This document shows, piece by piece, positions 2,186 to 41,449 of a stretch of DNA of 64,000 nucleotides. The notes beneath the pieces are model-generated. The model did not search any database, was not told where the DNA came from, and saw only the letters and a list, made by a program, of their open reading frames with translations. The translations under genes were made by a program, and so were the position numbers. Source of the DNA: Klebsiella phage vB_KaeM_KaOmega; the sequence record MN013077.1; one strand, written 5' to 3'. Numbering within the stretch: position 1 is the first letter of the stretch; the number at the start of each line of letters is the position of its first letter.

Positions 2186-2563
2186 TTACAAATAAACGCG
2201 CTGCACCTCTTTGTCTGCTTGATCAAACATCAAGTTTGCAGCATTGACGTCCTTAATCATCTCCTCCGTCATCTGATCCGGGCGGAAGGCCCGCAGTGAA
2301 CGTTTGAAGAGGACCTTCGGATCTTCAGTTACATCTCCCGACACATCGAACATCTTGATGATCATCTTCACCGGAACCTCACGAGAAATCTGCCCGCCGA
2401 CGTTGATGGCGTATGTCGCCCCTACTTCAACTTGACGATGGTCCAGTTCGTACATCAGGTTCAGGTTAACGTATTTGTATTCGTCGCAGCGAGTAATGTT
2501 CTTCTGTGCCTGAACACAAACCCAACCCGGCTCAACAAAAGTGTTATCGAAAATGCTCATCAT
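2186..2563 (-). CDS. hypothetical protein
   Basis: 125-aa ORF that tiles within the leftward operon. Confidence 0.5.
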   Translation of the reverse strand: MMSIFDNTFVEPGWVCVQAQKNITRCDEYKYVNLNLMYELDHRQVEVGATYAINVGGQISREVPVKMIIKMFDVSGDVTEDPKVLFKRSLRAFRPDQMTEEMIKDVNAANLMFDQADKEVQRVYL

Positions 2564-2615
2564 GTCTTCCTCATCGTTTAATGTTGTGACCAGTATACCT
2601 CTGTTTTCTCAGAAG

Positions 2616-3269
2616 TCAACTCACTTTTGAAATAATCAGCTTTTGCACGTAGCCCTGCAACAGGGCGTAAGTTATACCGCCCACATAACTACCGCCAACA
2701 GAGAGTCTCTCCCCGGCACCGAACCAGTTCGGCACGGAAAAGGTCTGCACCTCTCCGCTCACTATATTCCTCACCTTGACCTGGCGAGAATCTGGGTAAG
2801 TTTCTATCCGCAGATTGAAAACCTGACCTTGGTTACCATTGATCGAGCAACGAACATAATTTCCGCTGTTGTCTGTTGGGAACAATTGGTGCCCTCCAAC
2901 CCCGACCATTCCGTAATGCGCCAGTCCGGCGACGATCCTTGTGACGTAATCGCCAGAACACCACACCATCTGGGTTGCAGAAGGACTAAGGCTTTGGAAA
3001 ACAACCTCAATCACCATAGGGTCTGTGGACAGATCCACTGGAGACTGAGTTTGGAAATATCCTTGGCCTTGGGCAGGTATGAACTGCATGACCCTTCCAA
3101 TCCCTGCAACATCGACTATCCTTGGGCCTGCGCCGACCAAAGAGAAGGTGTGGTTTTCAGACCAATCCTTCAAAGTGGTCTCCCCAAGAGCTTGCCGTGT
3201 GGCATCGACATAGAGAATGGCATCCTCTTTGCGGGAAGACCTCCCTATAATCATTATCTCGTTCATCAA
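2616..3269 (-). CDS. hypothetical protein
   Basis: 217-aa ORF. Its start overlaps the stop of the upstream gene. Confidence 0.5.
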   Translation of the reverse strand: MMNEIMIIGRSSRKEDAILYVDATRQALGETTLKDWSENHTFSLVGAGPRIVDVAGIGRVMQFIPAQGQGYFQTQSPVDLSTDPMVIEVVFQSLSPSATQMVWCSGDYVTRIVAGLAHYGMVGVGGHQLFPTDNSGNYVRCSINGNQGQVFNLRIETYPDSRQVKVRNIVSGEVQTFSVPNWFGAGERLSVGGSYVGGITYALLQGYVQKLIISKVS

Positions 3270-3628
3270 TTTCTCCGAGGTTTTAAAACGCCAGATTTTG
3301 AAAGAGGGATCTCATCGGCATCTTTGCCTTTCTCTCCATCTTTCCCGTCCTTTCCTGTCTTACCCTCTGGACCTGCGGGACCAGCCGGACCCGGCACGTA
3401 TACATACTGCGGTTCAGTCAATGCAGAGACAAACAGTAGTATTGCCCAGGCAACGCCATTGACCCACAATGCAGGCCACATCGAAAAGAATACTGATAGG
3501 GCCAAGATCAATACCGCATTGCGGTGATCTCTTCGTCGAGCGATCAAGTATGGTGTCATCCAGAACAACACGAACAGCCATGCAGAACCTGTGAACAAAG
3601 ACCACATCAGATCAACAAATCCTGTCAT
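3266..3628 (-). CDS. membrane protein with collagen-like tripeptide repeats
   Basis: 120 aa with two to three TM helices. Ends in GPAGPAGPEGKTGKDGKDGEKGKD. Confidence 0.5.
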   Translation of the reverse strand: MTGFVDLMWSLFTGSAWLFVLFWMTPYLIARRRDHRNAVLILALSVFFSMWPALWVNGVAWAILLFVSALTEPQYVYVPGPAGPAGPEGKTGKDGKDGEKGKDADEIPLSKSGVLKPRRN

Positions 3629-5768: not shown

Positions 5769-6058
5769 TATCGGTCGGCCTTTAACTTCTTGTCAACCTC
5801 CGCCACCATACGGTTCAGTTCAGCCATTTCTTCGTCCAGCCTCTTGTTGATAGGTTTCCCAAACAACCAGAATTTATCCTTCGCAAAGTCCACCTTGTCG
5901 GCTGTCCACTGACACAGGTCTTCCAGCTTCCCCGCCAAGAAACTGCCAAAGGCAGCAAGCAGGCTGAACGGAATCAGTACCGCACGATGTGGGTTTAGTA
6001 CGATCAGTACGGTGAGAAGAACAATTACTTTACCAAACTTGGTCAGTACCTTCAACAT
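5768..6058 (-). CDS. membrane protein
   Basis: 96 aa with hydrophobic N-terminal segments. Confidence 0.4.
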   Translation of the reverse strand: MLKVLTKFGKVIVLLTVLIVLNPHRAVLIPFSLLAAFGSFLAGKLEDLCQWTADKVDFAKDKFWLFGKPINKRLDEEMAELNRMVAEVDKKLKADR

Positions 6059-6460
6059 TTAATTCCCCTCCAAACGAACATGTGGGTCAGCAAGATCATC
6101 CGACCCGTAATCCCAGAGGTCCATCCCAAAGTGACGGACACCATCCTCTGGCTCGTAGCCCGGTCGGGTGCATGGAGACACCCAAATACCTTCGACATTT
6201 GCTTCGATAAGCCCCTCGACACCAATACGGCTGTATGTCAGGTAAGGGACCAACACCGGGTCTTTTTCGCCGCAACCGCAGTCACAGACCCATACTTTTC
6301 CTTCACCAACATAGGGTAATTTCTCTGCCGGGATGAAGTTTAGCTGCGCCAGAGGGAATCTTTGGATCATCGCCGCCTGGTAGTCCGGGCCTACCAGCCC
6401 GGATACGAAAGCATTGACTTCTTCAGATTGCTTCTCAACGAGTTCGCTGTTATTTAGCAT
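6059..6460 (-). CDS. hypothetical protein
   Basis: 133-aa ORF with a CDCGCGE Cys cluster. Confidence 0.45.
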   Translation of the reverse strand: MLNNSELVEKQSEEVNAFVSGLVGPDYQAAMIQRFPLAQLNFIPAEKLPYVGEGKVWVCDCGCGEKDPVLVPYLTYSRIGVEGLIEANVEGIWVSPCTRPGYEPEDGVRHFGMDLWDYGSDDLADPHVRLEGN

Positions 6461-36372: not shown

Positions 36373-36401
36373 AATATACAGGGTCTCGATCGAGAAATCA
36401 A
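36373..36401 (-). promoter_or_regulatory. sigma70-like promoter for the leftward operon (TTGATT-17-TATATT)
   Basis: Minus-strand -35 TTGATT (plus-strand 36396-36401) and -10 TATATT (36373-36378) with a 17-nt spacer. The spacer contains the palindrome TCTCGATCGAGA. Confidence 0.5.
36384..36395. promoter_or_regulatory. perfect 12-bp palindrome TCTCGATCGAGA (candidate operator)
   Basis: Self-complementary. Lies inside the promoter spacer in the divergent control region. Degenerate copies at 47.7-47.9 kb. Confidence 0.5.
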
Positions 36402-36404
36402 TAC

Positions 36405-36433
36405 TTGAATCGTATTTTTGTTCATGCTACCTT
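36405..36433 (+). promoter_or_regulatory. candidate rightward promoter (TTGAAT-17-TACCTT)
   Basis: Weak -10. Positioned about 30 nt upstream of the HD-hydrolase gene. Confidence 0.3.
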
Positions 36434-36464
36434 ATTGTTCACTAAACATGAACAGGAGAGCACC

Positions 36465-37028
36465 ATGAACAAAGTCTTATCCCCGGCAGAGCAGCTTGCC
36501 ATGATGATCAAGCTGGCAGCAACCCACCATATGAAGCAATTCGATAAGGGTGGTCGCCCTTACGTCCTGCACGTCCTGAAGGTGATGCATTACCTTAAAG
36601 ACAAGGATGATGACGAACTCAACTGTATCGCGGTTGGTCACGATCTGATTGAAGACACCCCGGTTCAACAGTGCGATCTGGAACGCTTAGGTATCTCAGA
36701 TCGTGTTATCGACGGGATCACTCGATTGACCAAAATTCCGTTCCAGTCACATGATGAATACCTGAAGGACATTCTGAAGAGCCATGACGCCTGCCGTGTT
36801 AAACTCGCAGACCTGCGCCACAACACAGATATCCGCCGTCTGAAAGGTTTGCGTCAAAAAGACTTGCAGAGAATCCAAAAGTACCATAAAATGCACATGC
36901 AGATTAAGGACATGATTGCATGGTACGAAGACAACCATTTGAGCATGTTCTCTTTCCCGGGTGATTACTTTGATGCCCGCAACGAGCAGGTAAAATCAAT
37001 CATGGAGAAAGAATACGATGCGAATTAA
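36465..37028 (+). CDS. HD-domain (p)ppGpp hydrolase-like protein (SpoT/Mesh1-type)
   Basis: ATG at 36465 with AGGAGAG RBS. HD motifs HHMKQFDKGGRPYVLHVLKV, VGHDLIEDT and KLADLRHN match the RelA/SpoT hydrolase domain. Confidence 0.7.
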   Translation: MNKVLSPAEQLAMMIKLAATHHMKQFDKGGRPYVLHVLKVMHYLKDKDDDELNCIAVGHDLIEDTPVQQCDLERLGISDRVIDGITRLTKIPFQSHDEYLKDILKSHDACRVKLADLRHNTDIRRLKGLRQKDLQRIQKYHKMHMQIKDMIAWYEDNHLSMFSFPGDYFDARNEQVKSIMEKEYDAN

Positions 37029-37178
37029 AGTTTTAGATGCCCCGCTGGGGCATAAGTTTGACCCGGACACTCACTATCGGGTGTTCCGTCCGACAGAACC
37101 AGGCAAGGCTTTCGTTGTTGATGATGACTGCGAGGCTTGCTTCTTGAACGATATGGAATGGGAGGAGGTGACAAGTGA
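37017..37178 (+). CDS. small protein (53 aa)
   Basis: Found by hand. ATG overlaps the end of the HD gene. Contains DCEAC. Confidence 0.25.
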
Positions 37179-37378
37179 AAGTTGAAATCATTGAGCGCGG
37201 TACGGATGTATTGTTAGCCAGTCGTGATACTTGCATGGGTGGGTTTGTTTGTCCACGTAAGAATGAGCTGATCTACGCAGGCGGTGGTACGTATGTTGTC
37301 CGAGAAGTAAAGTTCTTTTATTATGACGCCATTGGCGGCAATGATGACTTCGTAGAAGTCTTGGTGGATGCAGAATGA
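37175..37378 (+). CDS. hypothetical protein
   Basis: GTG start with GGAGGAGG RBS. Confidence 0.4.
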   Translation: MKVEIIERGTDVLLASRDTCMGGFVCPRKNELIYAGGGTYVVREVKFFYYDAIGGNDDFVEVLVDAE

Positions 37379-37905
37379 AAAAGACCCTGAGCATTGAACC
37401 AGTTGTTTCTACGTACCTCGGTCGCCCCTATGGTATGGGTGACGATTCTGTACTTGACGATGGTGACTGGCTGGATCTGGAAGATGACAAGCAGTATACG
37501 ATCACACGCCTTGGGTGCCGGATCAACGGCAAAGAGCCGGAGGAAGTGTACTGTCTCTATTACTTCCTTCACGCCATGAAGCCGGGTTGGAAGGGTGATT
37601 ACCAAAAAGGTTGGACGTGGGATTCTTTCTTCACCTGTTCCTGTGGACACGGCGGCTGTGCCGGGTATCACGAGAACGTTCGTATCCACCGTAAGAAGGC
37701 CACAGTCCGGGTGATGGGTAAGGTGTCAGACGGATACAAAGACGGGGTTGTGGGGACCGGACAGGACGTTGTATACTTCGACAAGAAGCAATGGGACGGT
37801 GTACGGGAATATTATCTCGACCTGTTCCGCAATAACCCGGAAGGTATCTTCCAAGATAACGAAATGTTCTTCACCGGGCGATTTGGCCTGGCAACATGGG
37901 GTTGA
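37375..37905 (+). CDS. hypothetical protein
   Basis: 176 aa. CSCGHGGCAGYHE Cys/His cluster. Confidence 0.5.
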   Translation: MKKTLSIEPVVSTYLGRPYGMGDDSVLDDGDWLDLEDDKQYTITRLGCRINGKEPEEVYCLYYFLHAMKPGWKGDYQKGWTWDSFFTCSCGHGGCAGYHENVRIHRKKATVRVMGKVSDGYKDGVVGTGQDVVYFDKKQWDGVREYYLDLFRNNPEGIFQDNEMFFTGRFGLATWG

Positions 37906-37907
37906 GA

Positions 37908-38522
37908 ATGAAGCGTACCAAAGTAATGAACAAAGCGCGATTCCGCAAATCCTTTTTGGGCTTTGCTGTCGCGGCTGTTGTAACCTTCACCCTGTCCGGC
38001 TGTGAGCAGGCTGACGAAACGGTGAAGCTGTACATGAACTCTGAGCAGTGTGCCAAAGAAAGTGGCAATACTCTCGAACAGTGCCAAACTGCGGAGAAAG
38101 AAGCCCAAAAGGTTGCCGCAGAAACGGCACCGAAGTTTGGGACGTATGCGGAGTGCTACGAAGAGTTTGGCAGTATGTGTCAGCACAACACAGCGGCTGC
38201 TGCCAGCACGGGCGGAGAATCGCCGTGGATGCCTCTGATGATGGGTTACATGCTGGGCAATATGATGGGGTCAAGTAACTCTTATCACGCAGCCCCGATG
38301 TACCAGAGCCGTTCTGGTAAGTGGGTTGACAACAAGGCCCGATCTTACGACATCAAACCTGGAAAGTCGTTCAAGGTTACGAAGTCTGCGATCAAACCAA
38401 AGGTTGAGGCTCCGCGATCCACTTGGTCAGGTTCCAAATCCGGCTTTTCTTCGTCCAAGACAACCACCCGTGGCGGGTTCGGTTCCTCTGTGGGGCGTAG
38501 CAGCAGTTCTTTTGGTGGATAA
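37908..38522 (+). CDS. lipoprotein
   Basis: Signal peptide with LSGC lipobox. Ser/Gly-rich C-terminus. Confidence 0.5.
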   Translation: MKRTKVMNKARFRKSFLGFAVAAVVTFTLSGCEQADETVKLYMNSEQCAKESGNTLEQCQTAEKEAQKVAAETAPKFGTYAECYEEFGSMCQHNTAAAASTGGESPWMPLMMGYMLGNMMGSSNSYHAAPMYQSRSGKWVDNKARSYDIKPGKSFKVTKSAIKPKVEAPRSTWSGSKSGFSSSKTTTRGGFGSSVGRSSSSFGG

Positions 38523-38587
38523 AAGTATTGACTTATCAGATGGCCCATATATAATGGGCCTCATTGACAACAAAGAGGAGAAATTCA

Positions 38588-39826
38588 ATGCAGCAGACTT
38601 ACAAACGTACTGACCAGACCATGTTTAAGAAACGAATCAGTATCCGACAGATGGAAGATCTGATCCGCCTTGGTGCCCGTATCGGTAAAACCACCTTCTT
38701 CTTCGGTGGAGCAGGTCTCGGTAAGTCCCAAAAAGTGTTGCAGGTAGCCAACAACATGTTCCCCCACCGCATCGGGGACAACCTGTGTGACGTTCGTCTG
38801 TCTGACAAAGAACCGCAGGATATCGCAGGCATCCCGGTTCCGGTGACCTATTTCGACCAAGTTCAGGGTAAAGAAGTAACCCGTACCGTGTACGCATGTC
38901 CGAGTTTCTGGCCCACCGACCCAAACTGGGAAGGTATTGTATTCTTGGATGAACTGCCGAACGCAATGCTGGGCACTCAGCACTCTGCGTATCAGGTTAT
39001 TCTCGACCACGTTGCAGGTGACCACCGCTTCCCAAAAGGTTGTGTGTTCGTTGGGGCAGGTAACCGTGATACCGACAACGCTGGCACTACCGAAATGCCG
39101 GGTCCGCTGGTTAACCGTATGATCATGGCGGAAGTTGAATACAACCTGGATGTGTGGATCGAGGACTTTGCAGTCCCATTCAAACTGCACCCGCACGTAA
39201 TCGGCTTCCTGAAGCAGTTCCCGGAACATTTCTACACTGGTGACGTAGAGAAGCGCTCTACTCCTGTGTTTGCATCACCTCGTCAGTGGAAAACTGTATC
39301 TGACATCCTGTACGATTACGAGGTGCAGAAGGACGAATACATCACCGAGATCGCGATCGCAGGTTCTGTCGGAGAGGGTCTGGAAACTGCTGTTCTGGCA
39401 TACCATTTACGTGCCGCCGAACTTCCAAAGGTAGAAGACATCTTCTCTGGAAAGACTAAGAAACACGAACTGTCTCGTGAGAAGAATGACCTGGTTTACG
39501 TACTGGCGCAGACCTGCTTACGTCAACTGGAAAAAGAAGTGATGGACAACAGCATGAATGATGACGAGTTTATCGAACGTGCGAGCAACTTCCTGAACTT
39601 CATGTTTAATAACTACTACAAGGCGAATAAAGATACACTCATCGCACTGATGATCGGTATCTTCCGTGCATCTAATACGGAGCAACAGGCTGTCTTGAGC
39701 CTGAACCCGAAACGTACCAAGATGATCCCGGCGCTACGTAAGAACTGCGAAGCTGTTATGACGATCGTGATGGAATACCAGACCCGTTACGGTAAAATCA
39801 TGGAAGATTTCAACGTTAAGGCTTGA
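38588..39826 (+). CDS. MoxR-like AAA+ ATPase (AAA_5 type)
   Basis: ATG at 38588 with AGAGGAG RBS. Walker A GGAGLGKS, Walker B VFLDELPNA, sensor VGAGN. Confidence 0.75.
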   Translation: MQQTYKRTDQTMFKKRISIRQMEDLIRLGARIGKTTFFFGGAGLGKSQKVLQVANNMFPHRIGDNLCDVRLSDKEPQDIAGIPVPVTYFDQVQGKEVTRTVYACPSFWPTDPNWEGIVFLDELPNAMLGTQHSAYQVILDHVAGDHRFPKGCVFVGAGNRDTDNAGTTEMPGPLVNRMIMAEVEYNLDVWIEDFAVPFKLHPHVIGFLKQFPEHFYTGDVEKRSTPVFASPRQWKTVSDILYDYEVQKDEYITEIAIAGSVGEGLETAVLAYHLRAAELPKVEDIFSGKTKKHELSREKNDLVYVLAQTCLRQLEKEVMDNSMNDDEFIERASNFLNFMFNNYYKANKDTLIALMIGIFRASNTEQQAVLSLNPKRTKMIPALRKNCEAVMTIVMEYQTRYGKIMEDFNVKA

Positions 39827-39892
39827 CATCACAATGTGAACTGATAAAATTGGGTCATCTTTCGAGATGGCCCTTTTTCTTTTGGAGGAAAT

Positions 39893-41449
39893 ATGTTCGA
39901 TAATATCATGAGTGCCGAGGAGCTTGAGCTTGCCAACGCAAATACAGAAGAGGCAGAGAAACTCCTTGAGGCTGCAAGTCTTCAACTGATGCGCTACAAG
40001 CCCTTCTACGGGGTAATGTTGGCATCAATGCCGATCACCCGTGCCACGGAGACCATCAACACGATGGCTACCAACGGGCGTGACTTGTTTTATTCCCCAG
40101 AGTTCGTTGCGGGGATGTGTGACAAGCGTAAGGCGCTGGTAAAACAGCGTATTGACCAGCAGGTCAAGGACAAGAAAAAGAACGCAGAGATGAAGTTAAT
40201 GATCGATGTGTTTTATCGTCGCAAGACTGCCCGTGAGGTGGCCTTGGTTCTGGAGCACGAATGCGATCACGTGGTTTCTGAGCACATGTACCGTGGGAAA
40301 GGATACAACTTCGCGCTGTTCAACATCGCAGCCGACCATCGTATCAACACGAACGCTGTTCTGAACCACACAACGAATAATGAAATGGGTACAGCCTGGT
40401 TCCCTCTGGGTGCCAAAACGGTGTTCGACCCAGACAAAGAGTTTGGCTTCATGAAGTGGGCATACTGTGATTTCCAGTACGCAGATATGTATGCCGAGCA
40501 GATCTATGAACTTCTCGTTAAGCAGACTCCTCCCCCTCCACCGAGCGGTGGTGGCAGCGGTGCATCGGGTAGCGGGGAAGAGGGCAAAGGTGATTCCGGT
40601 GATCAGGGGAATGGCCCGATGGGTACTGATCAACACCCAAATGCAGACGGGACCTTCAGCGAACAAGATGGGGAGGACGACCTGTCCAAAGCAATGGGTA
40701 CTGATCCGGGGGCGATGAAGCCACTCACTCAGGAACAGAAGAATTATAACGATACGGTAATGCGCCGGGCAATCGAAAACGCTGTTCAGGCAGCAGGCAA
40801 GGGAGCGCCAGCAGATGCTCGTAAGTTTGTGGAAGAAGCCGGAAAACCGAAGGTTAACTACCTGCGACTGTTACGTCGGACAATTGAGCGATTGTTCAAA
40901 GACAACGTTTCATACCGTCGTTTAAACCGCCGTAGTTACTCCCTGACGCGATCTTTGCGTCAAGCAGGGTATCTTACTTCCCGGCAGACGATCGGCCTTC
41001 CTTCGTACACTAAGGCCAAGACAATCCGTGCCCACGTGTTCTTCGACGTGTCTGGATCGTTCACCGATGATCTTTTGGGGCCAACTAAACGTGAGATCAA
41101 GGGATTGTGCAATCAATATGAGGACTTTGAGGTCACAATGGCGGCTTGGTCCACAAAGGTTGGTAACATTTGCACGTACACGAAGAAGAACCTGAAGGAG
41201 ATTGATAACTATAAGATCCAAACGACTTACGGGACGGACGTGAAGTGCGTGTTCGAATGTCTTGATGAGCTTGACAAAGAGCCGGACCAGATTGTAATCT
41301 ATACAGATGGTTACTTCTCTGATGTATCTCAGACCAAAAACTGGGCGGAGAAGTATGGCAAGAAGACTCTGTGGATCATTTTGGGCCGTCATGGGCCTGA
41401 ATGGACTCCACCGTTTGGAACTGCAATTGACTTTGACAAATACCTGTAA
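39893..41449 (+). CDS. VWA-domain protein with N-terminal HExxH metallopeptidase-like domain (DUF2201-like)
   Basis: HECDH motif (HExxH). C-terminal MIDAS motif FFDVSGS. Classic partner of MoxR ATPases. Confidence 0.7.
   Translation: MFDNIMSAEELELANANTEEAEKLLEAASLQLMRYKPFYGVMLASMPITRATETINTMATNGRDLFYSPEFVAGMCDKRKALVKQRIDQQVKDKKKNAEMKLMIDVFYRRKTAREVALVLEHECDHVVSEHMYRGKGYNFALFNIAADHRINTNAVLNHTTNNEMGTAWFPLGAKTVFDPDKEFGFMKWAYCDFQYADMYAEQIYELLVKQTPPPPPSGGGSGASGSGEEGKGDSGDQGNGPMGTDQHPNADGTFSEQDGEDDLSKAMGTDPGAMKPLTQEQKNYNDTVMRRAIENAVQAAGKGAPADARKFVEEAGKPKVNYLRLLRRTIERLFKDNVSYRRLNRRSYSLTRSLRQAGYLTSRQTIGLPSYTKAKTIRAHVFFDVSGSFTDDLLGPTKREIKGLCNQYEDFEVTMAAWSTKVGNICTYTKKNLKEIDNYKIQTTYGTDVKCVFECLDELDKEPDQIVIYTDGYFSDVSQTKNWAEKYGKKTLWIILGRHGPEWTPPFGTAIDFDKYL

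Follow-up and report, generated by a model that had tools for sequence, protein, structure and literature searches.

The closest described relatives of the gene considered here are Aph1 of Bacteroides caccae and the small alarmone hydrolase (SAH) of Salmonella phage PVP-SE1. Aph1 hydrolyses pApp, ppApp and pppApp, with undetectable activity on ppGpp (Ahmad et al., PMC10083569). The Aph family is defined by homology to the last 53 residues of Aph1, Y90-E143, and all 12 purified homologues cleaved ppApp, only two of them showing modest ppGpp activity. Its signature consists of D24, R96, D116, R119, K133 and Y134; specificity is conferred by D24 and R119, changes at these two positions broaden the activity of Aph1 to ppGpp, and R96 is the only signature residue away from the active site (PMC10083569). 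The PVP-SE1 SAH, which belongs to the subfamily PbcSpo, neutralised five of five toxSAS toxins in E. coli (CapRel, PhRel, PhRel2, FaRel2 and FaRel; Jimmy 2020, PMC7229694, Table 1), including both (pp)pApp-producing (FaRel) and tRNA-pyrophosphorylating kinds, and Jimmy et al. proposed phage SAHs as a bypass of toxSAS defences (PMC7229694). SAHs can strip the pyrophosphate from toxSAS-modified tRNA, restoring aminoacylation (10.1101/2021.04.30.441581), as Kurata et al. found for ATfaRel and MESH1. Family, presence in phages, subfamily and anti-toxSAS activity are all already published. Here we analyse an SAH gene in a 64,000-nucleotide stretch of Klebsiella phage vB_KaeM_KaOmega (record MN013077.1; hereafter the window), and argue that its product is probably an adenosine-directed 3'-pyrophosphate hydrolase rather than a ppGpp hydrolase.

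The gene encodes a protein of 187 amino acids in which the catalytic set of the RelA/SpoT-homologue (RSH) hydrolase domain is complete: H22, H36, H59-D60 (HD), E63-D64 and K113-LAD116-LRH-N120 (Table 1). The last of these elements, KLADLRHN at residues 113-120, is the KLADRLHN of Rel with two residues swapped, and aligns with KLADRLHN of SeRel and KLHDLEDN of Aph1. The catalytic motif residues are invariant or nearly so across the 120 closest database homologues, the set over which all conservation counts given here were taken. The original prediction, which was made from the DNA letters alone, had named HD motifs (H..., HD and a KLADRLHN-like element) and a SpoT/Mesh1 hydrolase fold; the motifs are all present, and the fold is borne out by NCBIfam, PDB sequence and Foldseek matches. 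Searches of NCBIfam, PDB and PHROG were needed because the Pfam HD_4 match falls below its gathering threshold (16.7 vs 27.2 bits) and is insufficient alone. NCBIfam spoT_relA matches at E = 4e-11 through its hydrolase part alone (profile positions 3-135 of 687), PHROG 990 'metal-dependent phosphohydrolase' matches at E = 2e-60, and Aph1 (7SMG) is the top PDB sequence match at E = 1.3e-17, with Rel/SpoT hydrolase domains following at 1e-10 to 1e-11. From 61 sequences AlphaFold2 gave a model (predicted local distance difference test score, pLDDT, 92.9) that superposes on Aph1 with a template modelling (TM) score of 0.90, normalised to Aph1, and a root-mean-square deviation (rmsd) of 1.8 A at 32% identity (Foldseek). 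The model also matches MESH1, PaSAH, RelH and SpoT with Foldseek probability 1.0, and the 31 matches at E <=0.001 are all Aph1, MESH1, PaSAH, RelH or other SAH, SpoT or Rel chains. The protein is single-domain, with synthetase, TGS and ACT domains absent, and sequence and model together identify it as a stand-alone RSH hydrolase, that is, an SAH. A PADLOC search of the hydrolase gave no match, which places it outside the catalogued defence systems.

Several lines of evidence suggest that the base pocket of this protein is of the adenine type found in Aph1 and not of the guanine type found in Rel, SpoT and Mesh1. The family-defining segment of Aph1, Y90-E143, aligns without gaps to residues 96-149 with 37% identity (BLASTP, E = 3e-8). 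Of the six residues in the Aph signature, five are conserved: D27, D122, R125, K139 and Y140 correspond to Aph1 D24, D116, R119, K133 and Y134. This set comprises all five signature residues close to the active site and is present also in gp220 of PVP-SE1. The residues with which Rel recognises guanine (R43/R44/S45 of TtRel, the RKS of QVRKSGEPY) are D27-K28-G29 here, such that QVRKSGEPY of SeRel stands opposite QFDKGGRPY (Q25-F-D27-K28-G29-G-R-P-Y). In the PDB sequence search RelH was found at E = 9e-7 and MESH1 at E = 0.009, and PaSAH (6YVC) was undetected even at E <=1. From the residue pattern we infer a preference for adenosine substrates, and an adenosine 3'-pyrophosphohydrolase is predicted rather than a ppGpp hydrolase; hydrolysis of ppGpp appears disfavoured.

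The link to toxSAS neutralisation comes through gp220 of PVP-SE1, to which the protein is 57% identical over 147 residues (E = 1e-58). In the PVP-SE1 genome gp220 is the sole homologue, and the two genes are orthologous. Placement of the Klebsiella phage protein in PbcSpo is by proxy, through its 57% identity to the PVP-SE1 SAH that PMC7229694 places there. The terminal adenosine of tRNA, as the target of the toxins, would fit an adenine-type pocket. CapRel-SJ46 is an anti-phage system with a capsid protein as its trigger, and in E. coli three fused CapRel systems, CapRel-Ebc of Enterobacter chengduensis among them, were examined for defence against phages (PMC9712102). CapRel systems exist in the host range; the window has 96.5% identity, in the hydrolase region, with phages of Enterobacter and Pantoea. 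These comparisons divide the functional claims of the original prediction. Its choice of (p)ppGpp as substrate is not favoured, as the nearest characterised enzyme, Aph1, is (p)ppApp-specific, the Aph1 specificity residues are kept and Asp replaces the guanine-stacking Arg; the suggestion that the enzyme blunts the stringent response is disfavoured by the same Aph1-like residues. The idea that it counters alarmone-based abortive infection comes close to the demonstrated activity of the PVP-SE1 relative (PMC7229694, 57% identity).

We propose, with a probability of about 0.6, that the protein is a stand-alone 3'-pyrophosphate hydrolase acting on adenosine, in (pp)pApp and/or at tRNA CCA ends, and countering abortive infection of the CapRel/FaRel type. 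A metal ion held by H22, H59-D60 and D116 would activate a water molecule that cleaves the 3'-pyrophosphate ester of a 3'-pyrophosphorylated adenosine, bound in a pocket formed by D27, D122, R125, K139 and Y140. Likely substrates in the infected cell would be the (pp)pApp that toxic alarmone synthetases produce and/or tRNA to which toxSAS defence toxins of the CapRel/PhRel/FaRel2 type have added a pyrophosphate at the 3'-terminal A76. The phage would make the enzyme from the leading gene of a rightward block, and reversal of the modification would restore ATP and purine metabolism and tRNA charging, allowing escape from toxSAS abortive infection. We infer both the timing of expression and the benefit during infection. 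Several points weigh against this proposal. Five residues and homology are the basis of the specificity call; at the position of the sixth signature residue, R96 of Aph1, this protein has Asp102 and most close homologues have Gly; and two of the 12 tested Aph homologues did cleave ppGpp modestly (PMC10083569). The C-terminal extension of the protein is absent in Aph1, and oligomeric state and substrate access may differ accordingly. The PVP-SE1 data come from plasmid co-expression and not from phage infection (PMC7229694), and in the literature searched there was no demonstration of a phage SAH protecting a phage in infection. Neutralisation by the PVP-SE1 enzyme is moreover little guide to specificity, since ATfaRel and MESH1 neutralise toxSAS without being adenine-specific. 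Finally, the promoter match upstream of the gene is weak and early expression is deduced.

Other roles have to be weighed against this proposal. If the enzyme instead hydrolysed (p)ppGpp, host ppGpp would fall during infection, the stringent response would be blunted, and the synthesis of rRNA, tRNA and nucleotides would stay high for the phage; alarmone accumulation has been linked to phage infection (discussion in PMC7229694). Such an activity would accord with the fold and catalytic residues, which are as in SpoT, Rel and Mesh1, with the frequent annotation of relatives as guanosine-3',5'-bis(diphosphate) 3'-pyrophosphohydrolase or RelA/SpoT family protein, and with the modest ppGpp cleavage by two of the 12 Aph homologues (PMC10083569). 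We nevertheless consider it unlikely, because the guanine-contacting residues of Rel are replaced by D27-K28-G29, D27, D122 and R125 match the residues that make Aph1 reject ppGpp (PMC10083569), and in the PDB sequence search the match to Aph1 surpasses that to every (p)ppGpp hydrolase by about six orders of magnitude. Another possibility is that the substrate is a different 3'-phosphorylated nucleotide, such as NADPH, pAp or 3'-phosphoadenosine 5'-phosphosulfate (PAPS), or a 3'-modified signal of another defence system. The parallel here is metazoan MESH1, which is also an NADPH phosphatase and whose complexes with NADPH and PAPS (5vxa, 9chy) are among the structural matches; PMC9765508 describes SAHs as metabolically promiscuous, and the C-terminal extension is unexplained. 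MESH1 is a far weaker match than Aph1 (E = 0.009 vs 1e-17; rmsd >6 A vs 1.8 A), and the demonstrated phenotype of the orthologue is toxSAS neutralisation (PMC7229694), which together make a substrate of this kind quite improbable.

The closest solved relative raises one further possibility: Aph1 serves as the immunity protein against the phage's own (p)ppApp-synthetase toxin, the MuF-fused Apk2, an arrangement of temperate Bacteroides and pneumococcal phages (PMC10083569). In pneumococcal prophages the homologous hydrolase lies two genes after the MuF toxin, and 35 Streptococcus phage records carry a hydrolase homologue. When the C-terminal domain of the pneumococcal MuF toxin was used as a tblastn query, matches were confined to Streptococcus, Ralstonia and Pasteurellaceae phages, with no Vequintavirinae record among them, and the MuF-Apk query gave only a noise-level match in the window (E = 0.078, on the non-coding strand). 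The search used one synthetase type as query, and the window covers 64 kb of a roughly 150-kb genome. Pfam missed the synthetase domain even in the positive control, so that a Pfam sweep of the window would be uninformative. There is no RSH synthetase among the neighbours of the hydrolase gene, which encode small proteins of unknown function and are not head-morphogenesis genes, and the phage group is one of lytic myoviruses. As no cognate synthetase toxin was found with this query, we take the enzyme to be stand-alone, and a role in self-immunity is highly improbable.

Within the proposed adenosine 3'-pyrophosphate hydrolase activity, the adenine-type pocket might serve large lytic phages mainly in recognition of the tRNA 3'-terminal adenosine (A76) and less in that of free (pp)pApp, which would make the enzyme chiefly one of tRNA 3'-end repair against CapRel-type defences, with residues 150-187 as a tRNA-binding or oligomerisation element and expression perhaps gated by a leader hairpin that buries the ribosome-binding site (RBS) and start codon. 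We regard this narrower version as possible though doubtful. The window contains no tRNA genes and thus offers no local link to tRNA biology. The extension of about 37 residues and a possible leader hairpin are the only distinctive features of this gene. The Aph1 protomer is compact, with eight helices and without a C-terminal helix 9, and forms a tetramer (PMC10083569); the core of our model superposes on it yet carries an additional C-terminal helix (165-181). The extension is absent from Aph1, PVP-SE1 gp220 and most homologues (about 148 residues) and is kept in CR9, CR8, SSBI34 and phiTE, with high model confidence in this region; it is specific to the Certrevirus clade.

The open reading frame (ORF) lies on the plus strand and runs from an ATG at 36465 to a TAA at 37026-37028 in the ORF listing, and is a real gene. 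The GGAG of its Shine-Dalgarno sequence is kept in F1M1E, CR9 and CR8 in an alignment of the intergenic region. A longer form of 207 residues starting from a TTG at 36405 was rejected: no annotated relative uses the TTG, the ATG at 36465 has an RBS before it, and the stretch upstream aligns as non-coding. The ratio of nonsynonymous to synonymous substitution rates (dN/dS) is 0.024 against F1M1E and 0.062 against CR9, and purifying selection on the gene is strong. Antisense ORFs within the gene are short (53-63 residues), and the coding evidence gathered is all for the plus frame. The base composition of the gene matches that of its surroundings and hence gives no sign of recent acquisition.

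Table 1 Features of the hydrolase locus, with positions in the window.
Feature	Position	Strand	Evidence or conservation
Putative rightward promoter: -35 TTGAAT, 17-nt spacer, extended -10 TGcTACCTT	36405..36433	+	Weak, 7/12 consensus positions; read from intergenic alignment
Shine-Dalgarno AGGAGA, 7 nt 5' of the hydrolase ATG	36452..36457	+	Read from sequence
Aph1-like / PbcSpo-like SAH gene, RelA/SpoT-homologue HD type (predicted)	36465..37028	+	ORF, RBS, database matches, model, dN/dS
H22 codon, predicted first metal/catalytic His of RSH hydrolase domain	36528..36530	+	His in 119/120 homologues; aligns with His of Aph1 and SeRel
D27 codon, equivalent to Aph1 D24 (adenine-vs-guanine specificity residue; Arg in Rel/SpoT)	36543..36545	+	Asp in 119/120 homologues; Arg in SeRel
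Codons H59-D60 (HD) to E63-D64 (ED)	36639..36656	+	Invariant in 120/120 homologues, Aph1, SeRel and PVP-SE1 gp220
Codons K113-LADLRH-N120 (KLADLRHN)	36801..36824	+	K113, D116, H119, N120 invariant
Codons D122-I-R-R125, equivalent to Aph1 D116 and R119	36828..36839	+	Invariant in 120/120 homologues
Codons K139-Y140, equivalent to Aph1 K133-Y134	36879..36884	+	K in 116/120, Y in 120/120 homologues
C-terminal extension, residues 150-187 (last part of long helix 131-156, then helix 165-181)	36912..37025	+	Length distribution, alignment, model
Four downstream genes (55, 67, 176 and 208 aa; last = DUF1190), overlapping or abutting	37018..38522	+	ORF coordinates; order shared with CR9, CR8, F1M1E and SSBI34; Pfam

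Similar stand-alone copies are found in many large lytic phages, among them Aeromonas T4-like, Klebsiella, Salmonella and Erwinia phages and a cyanophage-like contig. The copy on this 160-kb JGI metagenome contig encodes a 149-residue homologue (6001-6450) with 56% identity, whose neighbours are many small genes, genes for HNH endonucleases and one for a ferredoxin-dependent bilin reductase, a context that looks like that of a cyanomyophage; with this copy, Aph-like stand-alone hydrolases recur in unrelated large lytic phages. A fused form is annotated in Pectobacterium phage phiTE, where the hydrolase constitutes the C-terminal 184 residues of the annotated 413-residue product of phiTE_055 (2311-3552). 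The N-terminal residues of phiTE_055 (about 225) are AP2/HNH-type homing-endonuclease-like, with no Pfam match, and are unrelated to PVP-SE1 gp219. Fusions of this type explain the profile lengths of 374-413 in PHROG 30929 and 990. A fusion partner for the hydrolase was considered and rejected here, as neither N-terminal part (the phiTE_055 module or gp219) has a homologue in the window. PVP-SE1 gp219 (1479-2507) is named 'thymidylate kinase' in RefSeq and had no Pfam match at E <=0.01, so that the name looks unsupported. Annotation of the hydrolase gene itself varies. Several close relatives label it 'hypothetical protein', and orthologues in PcCB7V, UPEC06, vB_SmaM-Kashira and pEp_SNUABM_01 are annotated 'GTP pyrophosphokinase' or 'putative (p)ppGpp synthase'; since the matching 187-residue query has a hydrolase domain only, these synthetase names look like annotation errors that have spread.

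Across the hydrolase region, identity is 96.5% to Enterobacter phage vB_ExiM_F1M1E and sibling phages of Enterobacter and Pantoea, and 79-83% to Cronobacter phages CR9, CR3 and PBES 02. On this similarity the phage is Certrevirus-like, within Vequintavirinae, and its relatives are lytic myophages of about 150 kb. In CR9, CR8, F1M1E and SSBI34 genes switch from the minus to the plus strand at a 123-bp gap, and the hydrolase gene is the first on the plus strand; the original description of it as the first gene of a rightward operon is correct as gene order, with the promoter deduced. The four downstream genes are probably co-transcribed with the hydrolase gene. Beyond these short genes lie a MoxR-like ATPase gene and then a DUF2201 metallopeptidase/VWA gene. 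The last of the four, the ATPase gene and the DUF2201 gene form a conserved trio (37896-38522, 38564-39826 and 39893-41449) whose products are a DUF1190 protein that has a hydrophobic stretch at its N-terminus, an ATPase, and a putative metallopeptidase of DUF2201 that includes a VWA-like domain. The ATPase is annotated as MoxR-like in relatives and has no Pfam match here; the same ATPase follows the SAH in PVP-SE1 and phiTE.

A candidate rightward promoter stands upstream of the hydrolase gene (Table 1). It is kept in F1M1E and CR9, reads TTGCAT and TGgTACTTT in CR8, and is matched at the equivalent place in SSBI34 by a sequence closer to consensus, TTGACA-17-AATAAT; a consensus promoter scan did not report the site. 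The next consensus promoter 3' of the hydrolase gene group is at 38528-38555. This site and another at 39823-39850 are near-consensus sigma-70-like sequences (11/12 positions) that precede the MoxR-like ATPase and DUF2201 genes, and the second is directly followed by a strong terminator-like hairpin with a T-run at 39852-39873. With these internal promoter-like sites and the terminator-like hairpin, the rightward block probably comprises several transcription units.

An imperfect inverted repeat of 25 nt (36417-36441 / 36449-36473, 76% complementary) spans the start of the hydrolase gene. As RNA it folds to -17.9 kcal/mol (z -3.35), burying both the AGGAGA RBS and the ATG. It overlaps the putative -10 element and is partly conserved, the inner stem not being kept in CR9. 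The repeat is a candidate leader hairpin, of consequence only with a transcription start further upstream, or else a site that functions at the DNA level. The divergent intergenic region also contains a leftward promoter-like site, TTGATT-17-TATATT (36401-36373), and a perfect 12-bp palindrome, TCTCGATCGAGA at 36384-36395, lies between its -35 and -10. F1M1E and CR9 have the identical palindrome, and CR8 differs from it by one change; it could be an operator.

Stand-alone alarmone hydrolases of phages are a proposed means of escape from toxSAS (CapRel/FaRel) abortive infection that has been tested only by plasmid co-expression. Our analysis extends the tested PVP-SE1 enzyme type to Certrevirus phages of Enterobacter, Cronobacter, Pantoea and Pectobacterium. 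Its useful correction concerns the substrate: a 'ppGpp hydrolase' label would misdirect experiments, and the residue pattern predicts ppApp or pyrophosphorylated tRNA instead. Phages of this group are open to genetic manipulation and CapRel homologues are present in some host genera, and a knockout could provide a test of counter-defence during infection.

The enzyme shares with the SpoT/Rel hydrolase domains and Mesh1 the HD fold and the catalytic His, HD, ED and D...N residues, and differs from them in that the guanine-binding residues are replaced, synthetase, TGS and ACT domains are lacking, and similarity is far below that to Aph1. PaSpo SAH of Salmonella phage SSU5 is likewise phage-encoded and stand-alone and neutralises all toxSAS (PMC7229694), and PaSAH of P. 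aeruginosa (6YVC) has the same fold by Foldseek; both belong to a different SAH subfamily, and PaSAH acts on (p)ppGpp as well as (p)ppApp (PMC10083569). ATfaRel of Cellulomonas marina, a PbcSpo SAH and the type IV antitoxin of the toxSAS FaRel, shares its subfamily with the PVP-SE1 enzyme (PMC7229694). Through its hydrolase activity ATfaRel neutralises every class of toxSAS, and it allows pyrophosphorylated tRNA to be aminoacylated again (10.1101/2021.04.30.441581); it is described as sharing an operon with its toxin, unlike the Klebsiella phage gene. Aph1 is the best match in both sequence and fold, and the two proteins share a compact core that lacks the N-terminal helix 0 of Rel. At about 32% identity, Aph1 is a tetrameric protein of 149 residues, whereas the Klebsiella phage protein has 187 residues and an extra C-terminal helix. 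D113 of Aph1 is His119 here, as in Rel, and R96 is Asp. In a temperate phage, Aph1 is encoded beside the cognate toxin MuF-Apk2 and acts as an immunity protein, whereas the Klebsiella phage gene belongs to a lytic myophage. PVP-SE1 gp220, the only one of the two proteins tested for toxSAS neutralisation, has 169 residues, lacks the C-terminal extension and is the second gene in its block; the gene before it, gp219, is without a homologue in the window. In other respects it is a counterpart from the same subfamily, Vequintavirinae: it shares the catalytic and kept Aph-signature residues, lies just past a divergent junction and upstream of a MoxR-like ATPase gene, and stands alone with no adjacent toxin.

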